This document shows positions 42,777 to 49,022 of a stretch of DNA of 53,703 nt, piece by piece. The position numbers were made by a program, and so were the translations under genes. Each line of letters opens with the position of its first letter. Within the stretch, counting starts at the first letter, position 1. The notes beneath the pieces are model-generated. The model was not told the DNA's origin, did not search any database, and worked only from the letters and a program-made list of their open reading frames with translations. The DNA comes from a virus: UHGV virus genome UHGV-0137934, one strand, 5' to 3'.

Positions 42777-43684
42777 CCCCGGAACCCCCGTGGAATCGTG
42801 GTTTGTACTGGACTAATTGAATTAACATCCCGCGGTCTGGTTTTGTCCCACGACTCCCTTGGCGGGCGGCCTTTAGCATCCCAACGGATAGCGCTTTGCA
42901 GATATCCCTCGAATTTTTTAGGGCCGAAAAGTGTCTCGGGTCGCATGTACTGGTATTGCTCGTCGTTGCCATGCCAGTGCTCATGCTTGACGTCAATTAC
43001 CAGTTTCAAGTCGCTAACGGTATGACCTTCGCGGAGGCGGGCGCGAATGTTCTCCAGCGAGGTCTTAGATTTCTGGTAACGGGAACCGCTGACCAGATTC
43101 AGGTGTGCCAGAACTTCGATCGCGTTATCGGTAATAACAACTTCAGGATCCGGCTTATCGTCGGGTTCCGCAGGAGCCCGACAAGAAGGTTTTTTAGATG
43201 ACGGATCTAATGACGGATCTAATGACGGATCGCCTTCAACCATTGAGGGGTCCTCCCGCAATATTTGAGGGGGTACAGACCCATTATTTGAGGCATCAGA
43301 ATTTGACCCCTCAAATTTTGAACCCTCAAATTCTGAGGCATCAAATTTTGATTGTTCACGTGGCGTTGCGTAGAAAATTTTTGCTTCAGCTGCTGCACGT
43401 TCCAGCATGTCAACATTGAGTTTATAAACGTTCGAATTATTCTTTCCGCCCACGCGCCGTTCCTGCTTCTTCAGCCAGCCTTTAGCCTGAAGCTTTTTGA
43501 TAGCGCTGCGGACAGTATTCTCGCTCTTGGCGCCGATCTGTCGCTGAATAGTGGTTACCGCTGGCCATGACACACCTTCGTCATTACTGAAATCTGCCAG
43601 GCGAGCCATGACCGCTATTTCTGAGATTATCAGCCCTTTGAAAGCGCATGCTTCCCATACGAGGCCGTGTAATTTACTGCTCAT
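42773..43684 (-). CDS. replication initiation protein, O-like (HTH N-terminus), with internal origin iterons
   Basis: 303 aa; N-terminal winged-helix region; acidic repeat-encoding middle (FEGSKFEGS, DPSLDPSLDPS) coincides with DNA iterons. Confidence 0.65.
   Translation of the reverse strand: MSSKLHGLVWEACAFKGLIISEIAVMARLADFSNDEGVSWPAVTTIQRQIGAKSENTVRSAIKKLQAKGWLKKQERRVGGKNNSNVYKLNVDMLERAAAEAKIFYATPREQSKFDASEFEGSKFEGSNSDASNNGSVPPQILREDPSMVEGDPSLDPSLDPSSKKPSCRAPAEPDDKPDPEVVITDNAIEVLAHLNLVSGSRYQKSKTSLENIRARLREGHTVSDLKLVIDVKHEHWHGNDEQYQYMRPETLFGPKKFEGYLQSAIRWDAKGRPPRESWDKTRPRDVNSISPVQTTIPRGFRG
43195..43350. repeat. origin-like iterons inside O-like gene
   Basis: Tandem 12-bp ATGACGGATCTA x2.5 (43198-43232) and at least four copies of CCTCAAAT(T/A)/TTTGAGG motif. 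Confidence 0.55.
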
Positions 43685-43853
43685 GGCTGCCCTCTACTTC
43701 CCTGAACTTGCGTTGAAACTGATCGAGTGGGCTAAAGCACTCGTGGGAATAGCCTTCCCGCAGGTAGATGACGCGACGTGTCTCAGGCTCCCAGCGGATA
43801 ACTCTGACTGGATTGCCATAGTGGTCTTTGAACTTCCGGTTAACTTCTCGCAT
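43674..43853 (-). CDS. hypothetical 59 aa protein between cII-like and O-like genes
   Basis: ATG with GGAGGG RBS; stop overlaps O-like start; not in ORF track. Confidence 0.4.
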   Translation of the reverse strand: MREVNRKFKDHYGNPVRVIRWEPETRRVIYLREGYSHECFSPLDQFQRKFREVEGSHEQ

Positions 43854-44025
43854 AACGCTTTAGCCCTCCGGTTAAAGACCCCCACAACTCCGCGTGCCCG
43901 ACTGTGGTTACACTCGACCCATTTACCGCATACCATGCGCTCATACCGAAACGACGAAACGCCCGGGATCGGGTACATCCGTAGTTGCGGTAATTGAAGA
44001 TTTACGATTAAATTGCTCATGCGGA

Positions 44026-44577
44026 TTATTTCTCCATACACAAAGATTTATTCGCCACGACGCCCGGAGCTGCACACTCGCGGGCGTCACTCTTTTCTGA
44101 CTGGCAAAAGACACGGAAAAGCAATGTCAAATGCTCCTGCCATTTCGCCATCACCTGATAACTGTTCTCCTCGATCTGCTCTCGTTCTGCCTGGTCAATA
44201 ACACCGTCAGCTGTAGCTTTACGGAGATACTGTGAGTGCTTTCCGATCCACTCGATAGACTCCATCAGGCGCTGGTTGATATCGGCGTTATCAACGTCCT
44301 CAATATCTGCCAGCGGCACAAAAACCCCGTTCGAATGGCGGGCTATCGCATTGGCTATATGATTCGAACCACCAGCGCGCTGCAGAACCATTGCCCAGCC
44401 TAGAGGGAAAATCTGATCTCCATCGGCACGTAAGCGGTTAAACAATGCGTTTTCAGTAACACCCAGCCATTCAGCTGCTTCTGCATACCCACCGTCCAAA
44501 TCAGTGATCGTTTTTTTGATCGCAGCCACCAGCCAAGCCGGCTGCTTATCAATTTTCCATTCAGGTTCTATACCCAC
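44026..44577 (-). CDS. cII-like/YdaT-like regulatory protein
   Basis: 183 aa; follows cro-like gene as ydaS-ydaT pairs do. Confidence 0.45.
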   Translation of the reverse strand: MGIEPEWKIDKQPAWLVAAIKKTITDLDGGYAEAAEWLGVTENALFNRLRADGDQIFPLGWAMVLQRAGGSNHIANAIARHSNGVFVPLADIEDVDNADINQRLMESIEWIGKHSQYLRKATADGVIDQAEREQIEENSYQVMAKWQEHLTLLFRVFCQSEKSDARECAAPGVVANKSLCMEK

Positions 44578-44621
44578 TGTTTGCCCCTTATCTCTGTGGT
44601 TAACGCTGCTAAAACCAAATG

Positions 44622-44822
44622 TTATTGTTTGGAATAGATATCTGGTCGGAGATCAAACTTCGTGATCGCGCCGGATGTGCTTTTTTCCAGTTTTTTTGCC
44701 AGATCAAATCCGGCTTTTTTGTAGCCGTTAAAAACTAAACGCAGATAACCGGGTGTAGAGCCAACGTTTGCAGCTAAATTGCTTTGTTGCTCTTTAGTTA
44801 ATGAATCCCAGAACTCTTTCAT
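44622..44822 (-). CDS. Cro/YdaS-type HTH regulator
   Basis: 66 aa from second ATG (AGGAGG RBS 8 nt upstream); divergent from cI. Confidence 0.6.
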   Translation of the reverse strand: MKEFWDSLTKEQQSNLAANVGSTPGYLRLVFNGYKKAGFDLAKKLEKSTSGAITKFDLRPDIYSKQ

Positions 44823-44892
44823 ATATGTACCTCCTGTGTACATATTACACGAAAGAAATGAACCTTCAAGGTACTTGTACCACGAAGGTACA
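44823..44892. promoter_or_regulatory. cI/cro divergent operator-promoter region with GTAC-type palindromes
   Basis: ATATGTAC-N7-GTACATAT (44823-44845), GGTACTTGTACC (44870-44881), GGTACA (44887-44892). Confidence 0.5.
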
Positions 44893-44909
44893 CACGGTTT
44901 AATTTCAAT

Positions 44910-45584
44910 ATGAAAACAATCCAGGAAATCAGGCGGTTAAACGCCAGAAAATTGCGTGATGGTGTTGGCGGTAATATTTACTTCGCCAATATGATTGATC
45001 GCGAGCCGACTCAAACCAGCCGGTTCATGGGAGATGGCGCCACTAAAAACATCGGCGATGCAATGGCAAGGCACATTGAAAAGTGTTTTGACTTACCTAC
45101 TGGGTGGTTAGATCAGGAACATCAAACCACTAATGTTGCTAAAACTCCCGATGTCTCTGATACAAATAGAAATATCACCATGGTTCCGGTTATATCCTGG
45201 GTACAAGCAGGAGCATGGACCGAAGTTGGCTATGCTGAGGTTGATTTGAATAGCACTGAAAACTATCCATGCCCTGTTCCTTGTGGGCCGATGACTTATA
45301 TTCTTCGTGTTATTGGCGACTCAATGATCGACGAATATAGGCCCGGTGATATGATTTTTGTTGATCCCGAAGTTCCAGCAGTACATGGAGATGATGTGAT
45401 CGCCTTAATGCACGATTCTGGTGAGACTACATTTAAACGGTTGATTGAAGATGCAGGACAACGCTATCTAAAAGCACTTAACTCAAACTGGCCAGAACCT
45501 TACATCAAAATCAATGGTAATTGCTCTATCATTGGTACCATAATTTTTTCCGGTAAACCAAGACGATACCGAACGAAAACATAA
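44910..45584 (+). CDS. CI-type repressor (HTH plus S24 LexA-like peptidase)
   Basis: 224 aa; C-terminal VIGDSM ... ETTFKRL motif of S24 autoproteases. Confidence 0.85.
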   Translation: MKTIQEIRRLNARKLRDGVGGNIYFANMIDREPTQTSRFMGDGATKNIGDAMARHIEKCFDLPTGWLDQEHQTTNVAKTPDVSDTNRNITMVPVISWVQAGAWTEVGYAEVDLNSTENYPCPVPCGPMTYILRVIGDSMIDEYRPGDMIFVDPEVPAVHGDDVIALMHDSGETTFKRLIEDAGQRYLKALNSNWPEPYIKINGNCSIIGTIIFSGKPRRYRTKT

Positions 45585-45595
45585 CAAAGACTATT

Positions 45596-45619
45596 AAACC
45601 TGCTTCGGCGGGTTTTTTT
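45596..45619 (+). terminator. intrinsic terminator after cI
   Basis: AAACCTGC-TTCG-GCGGGTTT hairpin plus T7. Confidence 0.6.
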
Positions 45620-45623
45620 ACAC

Positions 45624-45656
45624 TTGACAATGTACCTCAACGGTACATAATGTACC
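45624..45656 (+). promoter_or_regulatory. P_L-like promoter overlapped by two operator palindromes
   Basis: TTGACA-N16-CATAAT; TGTACC-N5-GGTACA (45631-45647) and GGTACA-TAA-TGTACC (45642-45656). Confidence 0.6.
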
Positions 45657-45757
45657 TAAAAGAAACAGCGAACAGGCAGGACGCCCACGAAGTAGCCGCC
45701 CGGGGCATATGAAGACCGGGATGATTCGCTGACAGATAAACCAAATAGGAACAGATC

Positions 45758-45991
45758 ATGGCAAGCAAAGGCATTGAAAACCTTATCAAGGACGCATTAG
45801 CAAACGGCTGTCATGTAGTCCGTAAAGCGCATCGCTTCGAGGTAAGCAAGAAAGGCCAAAAATCAATCACTCTTATTATTTGTGAAGATGGCACAGCTTA
45901 CCGGGGAGATATTGACCTAACGATCGCCATAGCCATTCGCACTCAAAAAGAAATGCGCAGCATCCTCGGCCTGCCGGCCAAGGCAAGTTAA
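45758..45991 (+). CDS. hypothetical 77 aa protein, first ORF of P_L-like operon
   Basis: ORF with AGGA RBS; not arginine-rich like N; weak HicA-like resemblance only. Confidence 0.45.
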   Translation: MASKGIENLIKDALANGCHVVRKAHRFEVSKKGQKSITLIICEDGTAYRGDIDLTIAIAIRTQKEMRSILGLPAKAS

Positions 45992-45999
45992 TTACCACA

Positions 46000-47109
46000 G
46001 GTATCTTCGGGAGGGGTTGCGGAGCTGGATTGACCACCAGCAACAGAAACTCACCCGACATACAGCAGCCGTTTAGCCCACGGCGTCGGGGGTCCAGTAG
46101 ACCTGGATTAATACTGTAGGGGTTATGCCGGTTGGTCGCCGGCGCCCCGCCCGAAGATACCTGATCGAACATGGCGAAAGCCGACAGCGTTGAAGGCGAT
46201 TTTCTCGGTTTGCGCGCTAAACAATAGCGGGGGTGAAATCGGGGCGGAGAAGCAGAATCCGCGATGTCGGGACTTGATACTTCCGGCCAGACCAATAAGC
46301 CGAATGATCGCGTAACGGTCCTTTGCATCTGCCCCGGCGAGGTGGCGCCGCCGGACCGGGGTAGATGAATCGTACACAACATGAAAGCGCATTCCATCTT
46401 CATCCGTCGTGGGGACTGGTTTGTAACTGAAGGAGTGCGCTTCCAGTTGTGAACGGCAATATTCACGACCGTTGTATGGCACATGCAGCGTTAGCAGCCC
46501 GGATGGTTCCCTTGAAGTTCCATGCGCTATCCGGACAACTGGAATGTGCAAGCCAAGTGTTTCAGGCACGACGTGCGCCCCACCAGCGCGGCGAAAAGGT
46601 GTGACGCCCGGGAAGAGTCCGGGACACAACGATGAGGGCATTGACGAGCAAGGCACAGAGTCTGGTTCGATTCCAGACGCCAGGATAGTTCTATATCTGG
46701 TGATGGGCAGGGAAAAGGTCCGTTCGATTCGGACACCGGCAGTGCTCTCTTCGTTGTGGTAATTGCGGCTATGCGCACGTGACGAGCCAAACCCGTTCAA
46801 TGAATGCGTTTCCGGGCAGTGTACGTCGCCGGTTATGGCTTAACCCGGCAGGTGGAGGCACCACCGCCACAACCTAGTTAACTGTGCTGTGTGTAGTCTT
46901 GGCGGTTATCCAGTTTTCCACTATCCAAAGGAGGAAGAGGATAACGTTCTGATGGATAACCGCCCTTTTTACACAATACACAAGAGCATCACCGGGTGAC
47001 GGGCTCATTACCCAATCCACCCGGGCGGCGTCCTAACCGCAGGTGCTCTTCTGTGTTGTGTACGGAGAAATTCCCGGCGGTGGCAGCCGCCTTTCGAGAG
47101 GGTAAAACC
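46000..47109 (+). other. GC-rich structured non-coding region (candidate large ncRNA or cis-regulatory RNA)
   Basis: No credible ORF; multiple long inverted repeats and twin T-loop-like hairpins (see findings). Confidence 0.35.
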
Positions 47110-47481
47110 ATGAGTAATGATCGCATGACAGTAGTGCCCGATTTCCTGGGTGAACTGGACGCCGGCGTGTTCATGAACAAGATTGCGGCGGCTCTTAATA
47201 CCACCGCGCTCGGCGTTCTGAACAACGGCAACAAAGGCAAGGTTGTCCTCACCTTTGATTTTGAGCGTATGGGCAACTCTGTTGAAGAGAAGCGCGTCAA
47301 GATTAAGCACAAGCTGAACTACAGCACCCCAACTCCCCGCGGCAAAGCGTCGGAAGAGGACACCACCGAAACACCAATGTGGGTTAACAAAGGCGGCAAG
47401 CTCACTATCCTGCAGGAGGATCAGGGGCAACTCTTCGGTATCACCGGCACGGTGGACGGAAAGCTTAAAGCGGCTCAGTGA
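47110..47481 (+). CDS. YfdP-like hypothetical protein
   Basis: About 124 aa from ATG 47110 (GAGGG RBS); ORF track start at 46996 is unlikely. Confidence 0.5.
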   Translation: MSNDRMTVVPDFLGELDAGVFMNKIAAALNTTALGVLNNGNKGKVVLTFDFERMGNSVEEKRVKIKHKLNYSTPTPRGKASEEDTTETPMWVNKGGKLTILQEDQGQLFGITGTVDGKLKAAQ

Positions 47482-47537
47482 TCCGCACGCACAAATTCAC
47501 TGATACCACTTCGCTAATCAGTTAATAAGGAATTTTT

Positions 47538-48365
47538 ATGTCTCAGTTAGACAGCGGTACTTTTCAGCAGGTTAAAGACCTGGTGCTTTCGGGTTATCAC
47601 CTGGAAGATATTAACGGTCTGGCCTGCCCGACAGTCCTGCGCCCAGAAAATACCAGCGTTGAAAGCCTGGAGCGTTTTTCTCTTGAGCGCTTCCGTTTCC
47701 GCGGCGCCATGGACACAACCAGCATTGATGATTTCGTTCGCTATTCTGTTAGTTATGCCCAAGAAGAAGAAAAGGCACGTTGCTTTATTGATGCCGATAA
47801 CATGCTGGCCCGTTCTATCTTCAATATCGGCACGCTGGATAACCCAGGCCACGCTGATAACGTCGCCTCGATCAAGCTTAAGAAGACAGCGCCCTTCCGC
47901 GCGTTACTGGCGATCAACGGCGATCACCTTAATCAGAAGCAAATCGCTGAGTGGCTCGAAGACTGGAGCGATTATCTGCTGGCATTTGATGCTGGCGGCA
48001 ACACGATGACGATCGCCCAAGCTGCGCAAGCTGTCCGCCGCGTCACTATCCAACAGGCGACTCAAGCCGACCATGAAGATAGTGACTTTAGCGGAAAGAA
48101 ATCGTTGATGCAAAGTATTGAAGCCAGCAGTAAAGAGGTTATGCCAGTAGCGTTTGAGTTTAAGTGTGTACCCTATGAGGGCCTGGGCGAACGTCGTTTC
48201 AGTCTGCGCAATAGCCTGCTCAAAAGTAGCGAGCCGGTATTCGTTCTGCGTATTGTCCAGCTGGAAGCCCAGGAAGAAGCGATCGCCAATGAGTTCCGCG
48301 ATCTGCTGATTGGCAAGTTCGACGGCAAGCCGGTAGAAACCTTTATCGGCAACTTCAAAGCCTGA
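47538..48365 (+). CDS. DUF2303/YfdQ-like protein
   Basis: 275 aa; size and synteny match CPS-53 yfdQ as remembered. Confidence 0.5.
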   Translation: MSQLDSGTFQQVKDLVLSGYHLEDINGLACPTVLRPENTSVESLERFSLERFRFRGAMDTTSIDDFVRYSVSYAQEEEKARCFIDADNMLARSIFNIGTLDNPGHADNVASIKLKKTAPFRALLAINGDHLNQKQIAEWLEDWSDYLLAFDAGGNTMTIAQAAQAVRRVTIQQATQADHEDSDFSGKKSLMQSIEASSKEVMPVAFEFKCVPYEGLGERRFSLRNSLLKSSEPVFVLRIVQLEAQEEAIANEFRDLLIGKFDGKPVETFIGNFKA

Positions 48366-48494
48366 TTGCTCTCCATTAAATCCCCGGCGCCGCGGGGATT
48401 TATTAAAGCGTAATCCTGCAAATAATCGCCACCTGGCGAGGGATTCCTACACCCAAAAAACAGCGCTGTGCAGGCGTAAAGTATGGAGAAAAAA

Positions 48495-49022
48495 ATGAGC
48501 TTTATTCAAACCTTTTCAGGCAAACATTTTAACTATCTCGACATCCAGCAAGACGCCATCGAGATCGAAGATATTGCTAATGCACTCTCGAACATCTGCC
48601 GCTTTGCCGGTCACCTGCCTGAGTTCTATAGCGTCGGCCAGCACAGCGTTTTAACAAGCCAACTGGTACCTCAGGAATTTGCGCTTGAAGCGCTGCTGCA
48701 TGACGCCGCCGAGGCATATTTGCAGGATATCCCTGCCCCATTGAAACGCCTTCTTCCTGACTACCGAGCCATTGAAGATCAGGTTGATGCAGCTATTCGC
48801 CAAAAATTCGGCCTGCCGGCTGAGCAGCACCCGACCGTTAAATATGCCGACCTGGTGATGCTGGCCAGCGAACGTCGCGACTTTGAGATCGACGACGGCA
48901 CCCATTGGACGATGCTCGACGGCGTCATTCCTACCGACCAATTTGTGATTAATCCCGTCCGCCCTGGTCAATCTTACGGCATGTTCATGAACCGCTTTAA
49001 CCAACTGATGGAGCGGCGCTAA
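48495..49022 (+). CDS. HD-domain 5'-deoxynucleotidase, YfdR-like
   Basis: About 175 aa; H...HD metal-binding pattern (GQHSVL ... LLHDAAEAY ... D). Confidence 0.6.
   Translation: MSFIQTFSGKHFNYLDIQQDAIEIEDIANALSNICRFAGHLPEFYSVGQHSVLTSQLVPQEFALEALLHDAAEAYLQDIPAPLKRLLPDYRAIEDQVDAAIRQKFGLPAEQHPTVKYADLVMLASERRDFEIDDGTHWTMLDGVIPTDQFVINPVRPGQSYGMFMNRFNQLMERR

Follow-up and report, generated by a model that had tools for sequence, protein, structure and literature searches.

The window, by which we mean the whole 53,703-nt stretch of DNA that was analysed (UHGV virus genome UHGV-0137934), is a lambdoid prophage of the Klebsiella type with a standard immunity region, and its closest relative is Klebsiella phage Kp4866-6, with 98.6% identity over the shared parts. 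The genes and signals of the immunity region and early-left operon that frame the stretch discussed here are the following.

44026-44577, minus strand: CII-like gene
44622-44843, minus strand: Cro/YdaS-like gene
44910-45584, plus strand: S24 LexA-type repressor gene (Peptidase_S24 match)
About 45597-45620: the repressor gene's own terminator, just before the PL-like promoter
45624-45651, plus strand: PL-like, near-consensus sigma-70 promoter, TTGACA-16-CATAAT (scan score 11/12)
45758-45991: 77-codon ORF of unknown function, downstream of the PL-like promoter
47110-47481, plus strand: yfdP-like gene, the first of the early-left operon (PHROG 204 match; named YfdP in homologous records)

An inverted-repeat operator, ATGTACC..GGTACAT, overlaps the PL-like promoter, and the same type of promoter and operator precedes the same leader in many loci. 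Between the 77-codon ORF and the ATG of the yfdP-like gene lie about 1.1 kb without credible genes, and the yfdP-like gene is followed by DUF2303/YfdQ, YfbR/YfdR-like and ParB-HTH genes (Pfam matches). Given this order of repressor, promoter, leader and yfdP, the stretch at 46901-46999, to which an earlier note made from the letters of the DNA had drawn attention, belongs to the 3′-terminal part of the untranslated early-left (PL-type) leader. The arrangement of S24 repressor, its terminator, promoter and operator, leader and yfdP also exists in e14, mEp460, ST64B, LLS and an O104:H4 prophage. Homologues of positions 46959-47070 are present in 2874 of the 5426 complete Escherichia coli genomes and in many phages (SfV-, ST64B-, e14-, mEp460-, phiNP- and LLS-like), always between the prophage repressor and the first early-left gene and always on the repressor strand. 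For comparative analysis, a pattern scan of viral contigs yielded at least 120 loci, which were reduced to 37 representatives at 93% identity.

The region from 46880 to 47115 folds with a z score of -4.6 against dinucleotide shuffles, and its minimum free energy fold consists of a first hairpin (A), a Y-shaped second one (B) and a small third one (C). Together with a further structured RNA near the promoter, the elements of the leader are listed below.

45658-45737, plus strand: element P, a conserved structured RNA, about 62-80 nt long, at the start of the PL transcript, directly after the -10 box
46880-46971, plus strand: candidate DicF-family small-RNA module (covariance model R2)
46901-46964, plus strand: hairpin A, a predicted terminator, followed by C and a U-tract at 46966-46970
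46912-46953, plus strand: inner part of hairpin A, with a helix and an enlarged loop, which includes the start of an ATG
46952-46999, plus strand: 15-codon ORF MDNRPFYTIHKSITG, overlapping hairpin A (3′ arm) and hairpin B (5′ strand)
46970-47062, plus strand: hairpin B, a Y-shaped RNA (fold, covariation and covariance model R1)
47063-47075, plus strand: single-stranded linker (alignment)
47076-47091, plus strand: hairpin C, GGCGG-UGGCAG-CCGCC, 18 nt before the yfdP-like ATG

The earlier note had observed that GGCGGTTATCC at 46901-46911 is able to pair with GGATAACCGCC at 46954-46964, followed by CTTTTT; these arms are present, and the stem that they form, hairpin A, proved to be both conserved and covarying. 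Its base in the window is a GC-rich helix of 11-12 bp, after which come C and UUUUU. Directly before hairpin B, 34 of the 37 non-redundant representatives have a GC-rich hairpin that ends in a run of 5-7 U and is built from at least six different stem sequences, with double changes at 5 of the 11 pairs and a covariation score that was reached by none of 500 shuffles. The recurrence of hairpin and U-tract and the covariation of the stem mark hairpin A as a conserved intrinsic terminator of the plus strand, at which transcription is predicted to end. Since AAGACUAC takes the place of a U-tract after the hairpin on the minus strand, the terminator is not bidirectional. Three representatives have no intact hairpin A immediately before B: L076, a compact prophage in which hairpin B comes directly after the promoter and hairpin A is absent, L052, whose copy lies about 270 nt further upstream, and L072, which retains only the 3′ arm and the U-tract. 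These exceptions indicate that A and B are separable modules.

At about 40 nt, the loop of hairpin A is unusually large for an efficient terminator, and the hairpin was not listed by a simple terminator scan because that scan has a loop limit of 8 nt. Within the loop, the pyrimidine-rich strand CCAGUUUUCCACUAUCC pairs in the minimum free energy fold with a purine-rich, ribosome-binding-site-like strand, AAGGAGGAAGAGGAUAACG (46928-46946). This pairing is a trait of the subfamily formed by L008, L012, L035/ST64B and 118970_sal3, in which a loop insertion of about 30 nt brings a purine run whose partner is the pyrimidine-rich 5′ side of the loop; e14, mEp460 and most other relatives do not have the insertion. 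A promoter inside or just before hairpin A was also considered, and alignments read by eye contain no conserved -35 or -10 box there.

Hairpin B is made up of a 20-bp outer stem, an arm B1 and a variable arm B2. Across 27 sequences, 98.7% of the alignment cells in the outer stem are paired, with double changes at five pairs. On the opposite strand, many of its G.U pairs would turn into A-C mismatches, and the covariance model R1, by which each locus has a single copy, gives the plus strand 136.8 bits and the minus strand 29.5; hairpin B is therefore an RNA read from the plus strand. It occurs in at least 120 viral contigs and in 2874 of the 5426 E. coli genomes, and in a species-representative genome set it was found at 21 of the 63 pattern-selected loci, 19 of them in records titled as Enterobacterales, while the titles of the other two (a Chryseobacterium and a Geobacteraceae metagenome-assembled genome) may reflect contamination or misbinning. 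No second copy that might serve as a nutR or putR analogue was found in the 53.7-kb window. Pairing between an upstream UGUGUGU motif and the ACACA of hairpin B was rejected, being uncompensated in e14 and mEp460.

The tip of arm B1, GGGCUCAUUACCC at 47001-47013 in the window, resembles the anticodon stem-loop of tRNA-fMet. In the pattern-found loci the tip is invariant (CGACGGGCUCAUAACCCAAUCC), and it has 14 nt in common with the initiator tRNA anticodon stem-loop, for which metY was compared, namely three G-C pairs and the loop CUCAUAA with its anticodon CAU. The match to metY is limited to these 14 nt (CGGGCUCAUAACCC in relatives), and homologues found by BLAST and not by the pattern keep GGGCUCAU and vary at loop positions 37-38. 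A tRNA gene was rejected as an explanation: ARAGORN found none in the window, relaxed thresholds produced only implausible intron-containing calls, and there was no Rfam tRNA match. T-loop-like strings were seen at 46664 and 46721. Judged from its sequence and covariation, hairpin B is a widespread, undescribed structured RNA that appears to copy the initiator-tRNA anticodon loop.

Downstream of B, the linker reads CGGAGAAAUUCCC in the window and GGAGAAAC(U/C)AAC in most relatives; as a side observation, it bears some resemblance to the ftsZ translation start region GGAGAGAAACUAUG. Hairpin C, which the earlier note had rightly described and placed at 47068-47083, 8 nt upstream of where it lies, is conserved, with a hexaloop (U/G)(U/G)GCAG (KKGCAG) carried by at least seven different stems. 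It stands just upstream of the ribosome binding site of the first gene, whether this encodes YfdP, an RdgC-like protein or another product, and some relatives have a KKGCAG-type loop again in arm B2, as does L076 before its first gene.

At the other end of the leader, element P has a closing stem GCGAACA/UGAUUCGC that encloses a hairpin I, GGC-AGGAC-GCC, and a hairpin II, CCGG/CCGG (columns 45-48 paired to columns 61-64, which makes up four of the five CCCGG/CCGGG pairs), with the loop GGCAUAUGAAGA. In 60 unique loci, the different promoter/operator types upstream of it number at least 10; compensatory changes affect four of its pairs, and its covariance model (R3) matches the window once, with 103.6 bits. 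Element P is also found in SfV, SfII, SfIV, ST64B, phiNP, ZF40 and Yersinia phages, and model R3 found none in L076, mEp460 or Qin. Most records have nothing annotated under the match (three have no annotation at all), and a few carry a hypothetical-protein CDS or, under weak partial matches, a repeat_region. For P, B and C alike, no Rfam family scored above its gathering threshold, and the examined records hold no RNA-feature annotation.

The identity of the segment that ends in hairpin A emerged from covariance model comparison. The module at 46880-46971 consists of a conserved single-stranded 5′ motif, GCUGUGUGUAGUCUU (46886-46900), hairpin A and the U-tract. Model R2, built from 18 homologues with both the window and DicF left out, matches the window at 46880-46971 with 43.5 bits (E 4e-9), and its single match in the Qin locus (L126) is the annotated K-12 dicF gene (L126:2877-2941, 31.5 bits, E 6.5e-6). 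Conversely, the Rfam DicF model (RF00039) aligns to the e14 copy over the full model length with 28.5 bits (E 0.017), below the gathering score of 48 bits, a score that was not reached on any copy; an Rfam scan of 43000-49000 at E<=1 returned no match, DicF included. The module thus has sequence and structure homology to dicF by model R2, lies in a repressor-controlled early-left (dicB-type) lambdoid operon, and ends in a Rho-independent terminator hairpin with a U-tail, as in 34 of the 37 representatives.

For the target of DicF, the results were less telling. Duplex prediction (RNAduplex) between the window and the E. coli ftsZ start region gave -19.2 kcal/mol, worse than the shuffle mean, by a method that is weakly discriminating, since DicF itself reaches only z = -1.6. 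The loop of the window's own module, AGUUUUCC, pairs with the E. coli ftsZ start region no better than chance as judged by shuffles, and a DicF-like function is therefore unproven. In one relative, L022, the hairpin loop includes GUUUCUCUCC, an exact 10-nt complement of the ftsZ start region GGAGAGAAAC. The comparison of sequences and predicted structures thus makes homology of the module to dicF well supported, and identity of function not.

Overall, we conclude, with a probability of about 0.72, that the DicF family has a divergent member at 46880-46971, situated inside the untranslated early-left (PL) leader, about 1.45 kb long, of a lambdoid Klebsiella-type prophage. Once the S24 repressor is inactivated, PL (45624-45651) would fire and its transcript would pass through several long stem domains in succession. 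At hairpin A and its U-tract (46901-46970) a fraction of the polymerases would stop, giving a small RNA its 3′ end there; a terminator hairpin that carries a U-tail is the module usually bound by Hfq. The likely pairing regions of such a small RNA, through which it would reach its targets, are the single-stranded 5′ motif and the pyrimidine-rich loop. The remaining polymerase would read through into hairpin B, hairpin C and yfdP, and the 20-bp outer stem of B would probably be an RNase III processing site that parts the small RNA from the mRNA; that B is an RNase III processing stem is likely by analogy with Qin. In the best-supported reading, then, hairpin A would also be a partial barrier in the PL leader. 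Read-through at this barrier may be simply leaky, as at dicF, or may be actively promoted by P, B or C.

The last of these options leads to a broader proposal, which we offer tentatively and consider unlikely in its entirety: P, B and C would form an undescribed RNA control system of N-less Enterobacterales lambdoid prophages. P, or B with C, or both, would antiterminate, and the tip of B, a look-alike of the initiator tRNA in its three G-C pairs and CUCAU, would engage the 30S P site/IF3, MetRS or a VapC-type initiator-tRNA nuclease, and so control or protect early-left expression.

Taken without a role for the tip, RNA-based processive antitermination in N-less lambdoid phages would mean that the region is the 3′ portion of such a system, that P, or B together with C, modifies RNA polymerase in the manner of HK022 put, that transcription from PL then passes hairpin A and later terminators, and that hairpin A stops unmodified polymerase only. 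No recognisable N is present in these phages, and for phage LLS, which carries both A and B, the authors noted no N homologue and guessed at put-like RNA antitermination (PMC12315714). With at least 10 unrelated types of promoter, element P is placed at +1 to +10; it is similar to put in size and contains two covarying hairpins; in L076 it is hairpin B that takes up the place directly after the promoter; and an untranslated leader of more than 1.1 kb with an internal terminator would presumably need some means of polymerase delivery. However, neither P nor B has a PR-side partner in the 53.7-kb window, where each is single-copy, and no similarity to HK022 putL or putR was detected by BLAST at word size 7 or by running model R3 on the HK022 immunity region. 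In addition, L076, mEp460 and Qin have no P, and the terminator that B would have to suppress lies upstream of B. On balance we doubt that this mechanism operates here.

Improbable, in our assessment, is a role for hairpin C, and possibly B, as a nut-like site, with KKGCAG as the boxB analogue for an RNA-binding phage antiterminator or translational regulator, or as a control element for translation of the first gene. The conservation of the hexaloop on so many stems, its position upstream of the ribosome binding site of a varying first gene and its recurrence in arm B2 and in L076 are what such a site would lead one to expect. Against it, there is no conserved boxA (the GCUCUU in the 3′ strand of B varies and is base-paired), no arginine-rich N-like gene adjoins, the first gene itself varies, and no second, nutR-like copy was found in the window.

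The least probable explanation, to which we give next to no credence, is the one that the earlier note had favoured: an attenuator in which translation of the 15-codon ORF, or competition of a second GGAUAAC copy for the 5′ arm of hairpin A, gates read-through into yfdP. Its elements can be drawn. ATG 46952 does open the ORF MDNRPFYTIHKSITG, with its stop at 46997-46999; an AAGGAGG-type run is there, although at 46928-46934 and not at 46927-46933; and so is the nearer arm, GGATAACG, one position upstream (46939-46946) of where it had been put (46940-46947). The nearer helix, 7 bp between GUUAUCC (46905-46911) and GGAUAAC (46939-46945), forms in a truncated, co-transcriptional fold, before the distal arm has been transcribed, and only there. 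In the full sequence, enforcing the alternative gives -20.2 kcal/mol versus -28.8 kcal/mol for the terminator fold (8.6 weaker), with a pair probability of about 1e-5.

Similarly, the signals for translation do not bear out a leader peptide. GGAGG (46930-46934) is 17 nt from the ATG, and only the weaker GAGGA (46937-46941), 10 nt before it, is well spaced; both of these runs, as well as the ATG, are base-paired within hairpin A. The ATG forms part of the terminator's 3′ arm and lies 14-18 nt away from the release site, where it would be in or near RNA polymerase at the moment of decision, and, going by the polymerase footprint, a ribosome could therefore not be expected to initiate before termination is decided. 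The ORF contains no run of regulatory codons. As for its conservation in homologues, the insertion that holds the Shine-Dalgarno-like runs, the second arm copy and the ATG is missing from most relatives, and among the 34 terminator-bearing representatives only the window has an ATG and a Shine-Dalgarno-like motif inside the hairpin; 15 of the 34 have no ATG ORF at the site, and in the remainder the ORF starts elsewhere, mostly in other frames. Peptides that share the C-terminal end ‘SITG’ do so because the 5′ strand of hairpin B is conserved at the nucleotide level, with substitutions that are RNA-compensatory. These alignments thus contain neither a conserved translatable leader ORF nor a conserved, energetically competitive antiterminator helix. 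We judge from the sequences that the 15-codon ORF is not a gene. The ribosome-binding-site-like run, the second GGAUAAC copy and the ORF are by-products of the lineage-specific loop insertion and not a sensing device. The earlier observation is thus partly confirmed, and its interpretation partly supported: the sensing mechanism falls away, and what stands is that the leader holds a conserved intrinsic terminator shortly before the yfdP operon, because of which read-through at this point must matter for expression of the operon, and that the second hairpin (C) is a conserved element.

Several elements described in the literature were compared and set aside. The positions of svsR/co293 are different ones, namely the cI 3′ end and the vicinity of icd (PMC12803456); PasB is found amid structural genes and STnc100 close to Q, with STnc100 matches here that are sub-threshold and partial (both bioRxiv 2026.05.13.724894); and the N-like Gp17 of mEpimmI with its nut sites belongs to a different phage group (PMC11893012). 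A published list of RNase III targets has no entry for e14 or ymfH (PMC5371410).

With the divergent DicF-family module as the preferred reading, the DicF family, which blocks cell division and rewires sugar metabolism, would extend to a Klebsiella-type prophage, and the Rfam DicF model would be missing a large set of divergent relatives in SfV-, ST64B-, e14-, mEp460- and LLS-like phages. P, B and C are conserved, covarying RNAs in the early-left leader of prophages carried by about half of the complete E. coli genomes. For N-less phages with long untranslated leaders that contain a terminator, P, B and C are the obvious candidates for the delivery of polymerase.

Among known systems, the leader-peptide attenuators of trp, his and pheA resemble the window in having a terminator hairpin and U-tract within an operon leader; unlike them, the window has no conserved leader ORF, regulatory codons or conserved antiterminator, and its ORF begins in the 3′ arm of the terminator. 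The putL and putR sites of HK022 make RNA polymerase terminator-resistant through the beta-prime zinc-binding domain. Like put, element P (and hairpin B in L076) is a structured RNA right after an early promoter in N-less lambdoid phages, about 70 nt long with two hairpins; P lies at the start of PL in 60 loci, and B is promoter-proximal in L076. Unlike put, P and B are single-copy and not a left-right pair, and P is a closed three-way junction.

Two further operon leaders for comparison are the lambda PL leader, which comprises nutL, an RNase III-sensitive hairpin and the N ribosome binding site, and the metY-nusA-infB leader, with tRNA-fMet, leaky terminators and an RNase III stem. Each places a long RNase III-type stem between a small stable RNA, or a protein-binding site, and the first ORF, and the window's leader would do likewise. 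The window differs from them in having no boxA/boxB and no N, and in that hairpin B is an anticodon-arm look-alike only and not a tRNA.

The closest parallel is DicF from Qin, a prophage of E. coli K-12. There are differences: DicF does not have the loop insertion of about 30 nt, its 5′ motif is UUUCUGGUGACGUU where the window has GCUGUGUGUAGUCUU, and the domain downstream of the window module, hairpin B, is unrelated in sequence to that of Qin, where model R1 found no hairpin B, so the RNase III analogy is positional only. DicF derives from the polycistronic dicBp transcript through termination and processing by RNases III and E, and the 72-nt form made by RNase III has its 3′ end about 19 nt past the terminator (PMC5069750; bioRxiv 10.1101/2023.04.14.536235). 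That end falls within a long-range stem of about 21 bp in Qin, which opens immediately downstream of the DicF terminator and is closed just ahead of the dicB ribosome binding site, the same layout as that of A, B and yfdP. Like the window module, DicF lies in the early-left operon downstream of the repressor gene (dicA), and the two are alike in their short single-stranded 5′ part, their GGCGG...CCGCC hairpin with a pyrimidine-rich loop, and the CUUUUU that follows it.

Upstream of hairpin A, the terminator hairpin of a probable DicF-family small-RNA module, the leader of the early-left (PL) transcript contains several further structured domains, and others accompany hairpin B, the Y-shaped RNA that follows. 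The features discussed here are as follows.

45658-45737: element P, a conserved, covarying structured RNA forming the first part of the PL transcript
45758-45991: 77-codon ORF, PHROG 12911, unknown function
46000-46165: long-range stem, GGUAUCUUCGGGAGGGG ... CCCCGCCCGAAGAUACC, closing a domain of about 165 nt
46369-46490: weak paralogue of hairpin B, 21.1 bits with CM R1, the covariance model of hairpin B
46625-46758: weak paralogue of hairpin B, 12.9 bits with CM R1
47001-47013: tip of arm B1, inside hairpin B (46970-47062), pattern GGG-CUCAU(A/U)(A/C)-CCC
47063-47075: linker 3′ of hairpin B, conserved as GGAGAAAC(U/C)AAC in most relatives

Both weak paralogues are long-range stems beginning with ACAAC and ending with GUUGU. 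Inside the second are two T-arm-like hairpins, each with a UUCGAUU loop (at 46664 and at 46721). CACAAC occurs 3′ of several upstream hairpins (46373, 46627 and 46869), which suggests an array that is modular and recombines, its units being tRNA-like stem domains. The 77-codon ORF is an insertion separating element P from the leader domain that comes next, and of about 125 related loci only 2 carry it; the 46000-46165 domain is present in ST64B without the ORF that lies just upstream of it in the window.

For element P, at least 10 different promoter/operator types precede the RNA across 60 loci, and it is, judged by position, a candidate antiterminator or stability element. No Rfam family matched it, and no similarity to HK022 put, an antiterminator RNA, was found. 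The AGGAC loop of its hairpin I, which contains GGA, and a GGGAUGA 3′ of hairpin II resemble CsrA-binding motifs. GCAG is invariant within the element (AGGCAGGA) and at the 3′ junction of hairpin B (CGCAGGUG). Hairpins with (U/G)(U/G)GCAG hexaloops on unrelated stems were repeatedly found upstream of the first gene, at 47076-47091 in the window and in relatives, as well as in arm B2 of hairpin B in some relatives; one compact prophage, with hairpin B right after its promoter, has two.

Scanning with Rfam also identified an antisense RNA in two relatives:

mEp460, locus positions 586-787: C4 antisense RNA and isrK, above gathering score
ST64B, locus positions 175-376: C4 antisense RNA and isrK, above gathering score

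Their c4-a1b1 targets were matched below threshold only (about 23 bits versus a gathering score of 46.7). All of these matches fall within the annotated Rha gene of mEp460 and sb41 of ST64B, on the opposite side of the immunity region, and they mark a P1/P7-type RNA immunity module in these relatives, which the Rfam scan did not detect within positions 43000-49000 of the window.

The tip of arm B1 copies the anticodon stem-loop of initiator tRNA-fMet. Sequence comparison revealed a 14-nt identity to the tRNA-fMet gene metY (CGGGCUCAUAACCC) in the B1 tip of most relatives; CAU and the stem are invariant, and variation occurs at loop positions 37-38. The conserved linker resembles the ftsZ start region (GGAGAGAAACUAUG), the pairing partner of DicF-type loops; it may serve the small RNA as a target in cis or as a decoy, or may be just an SD-like string.
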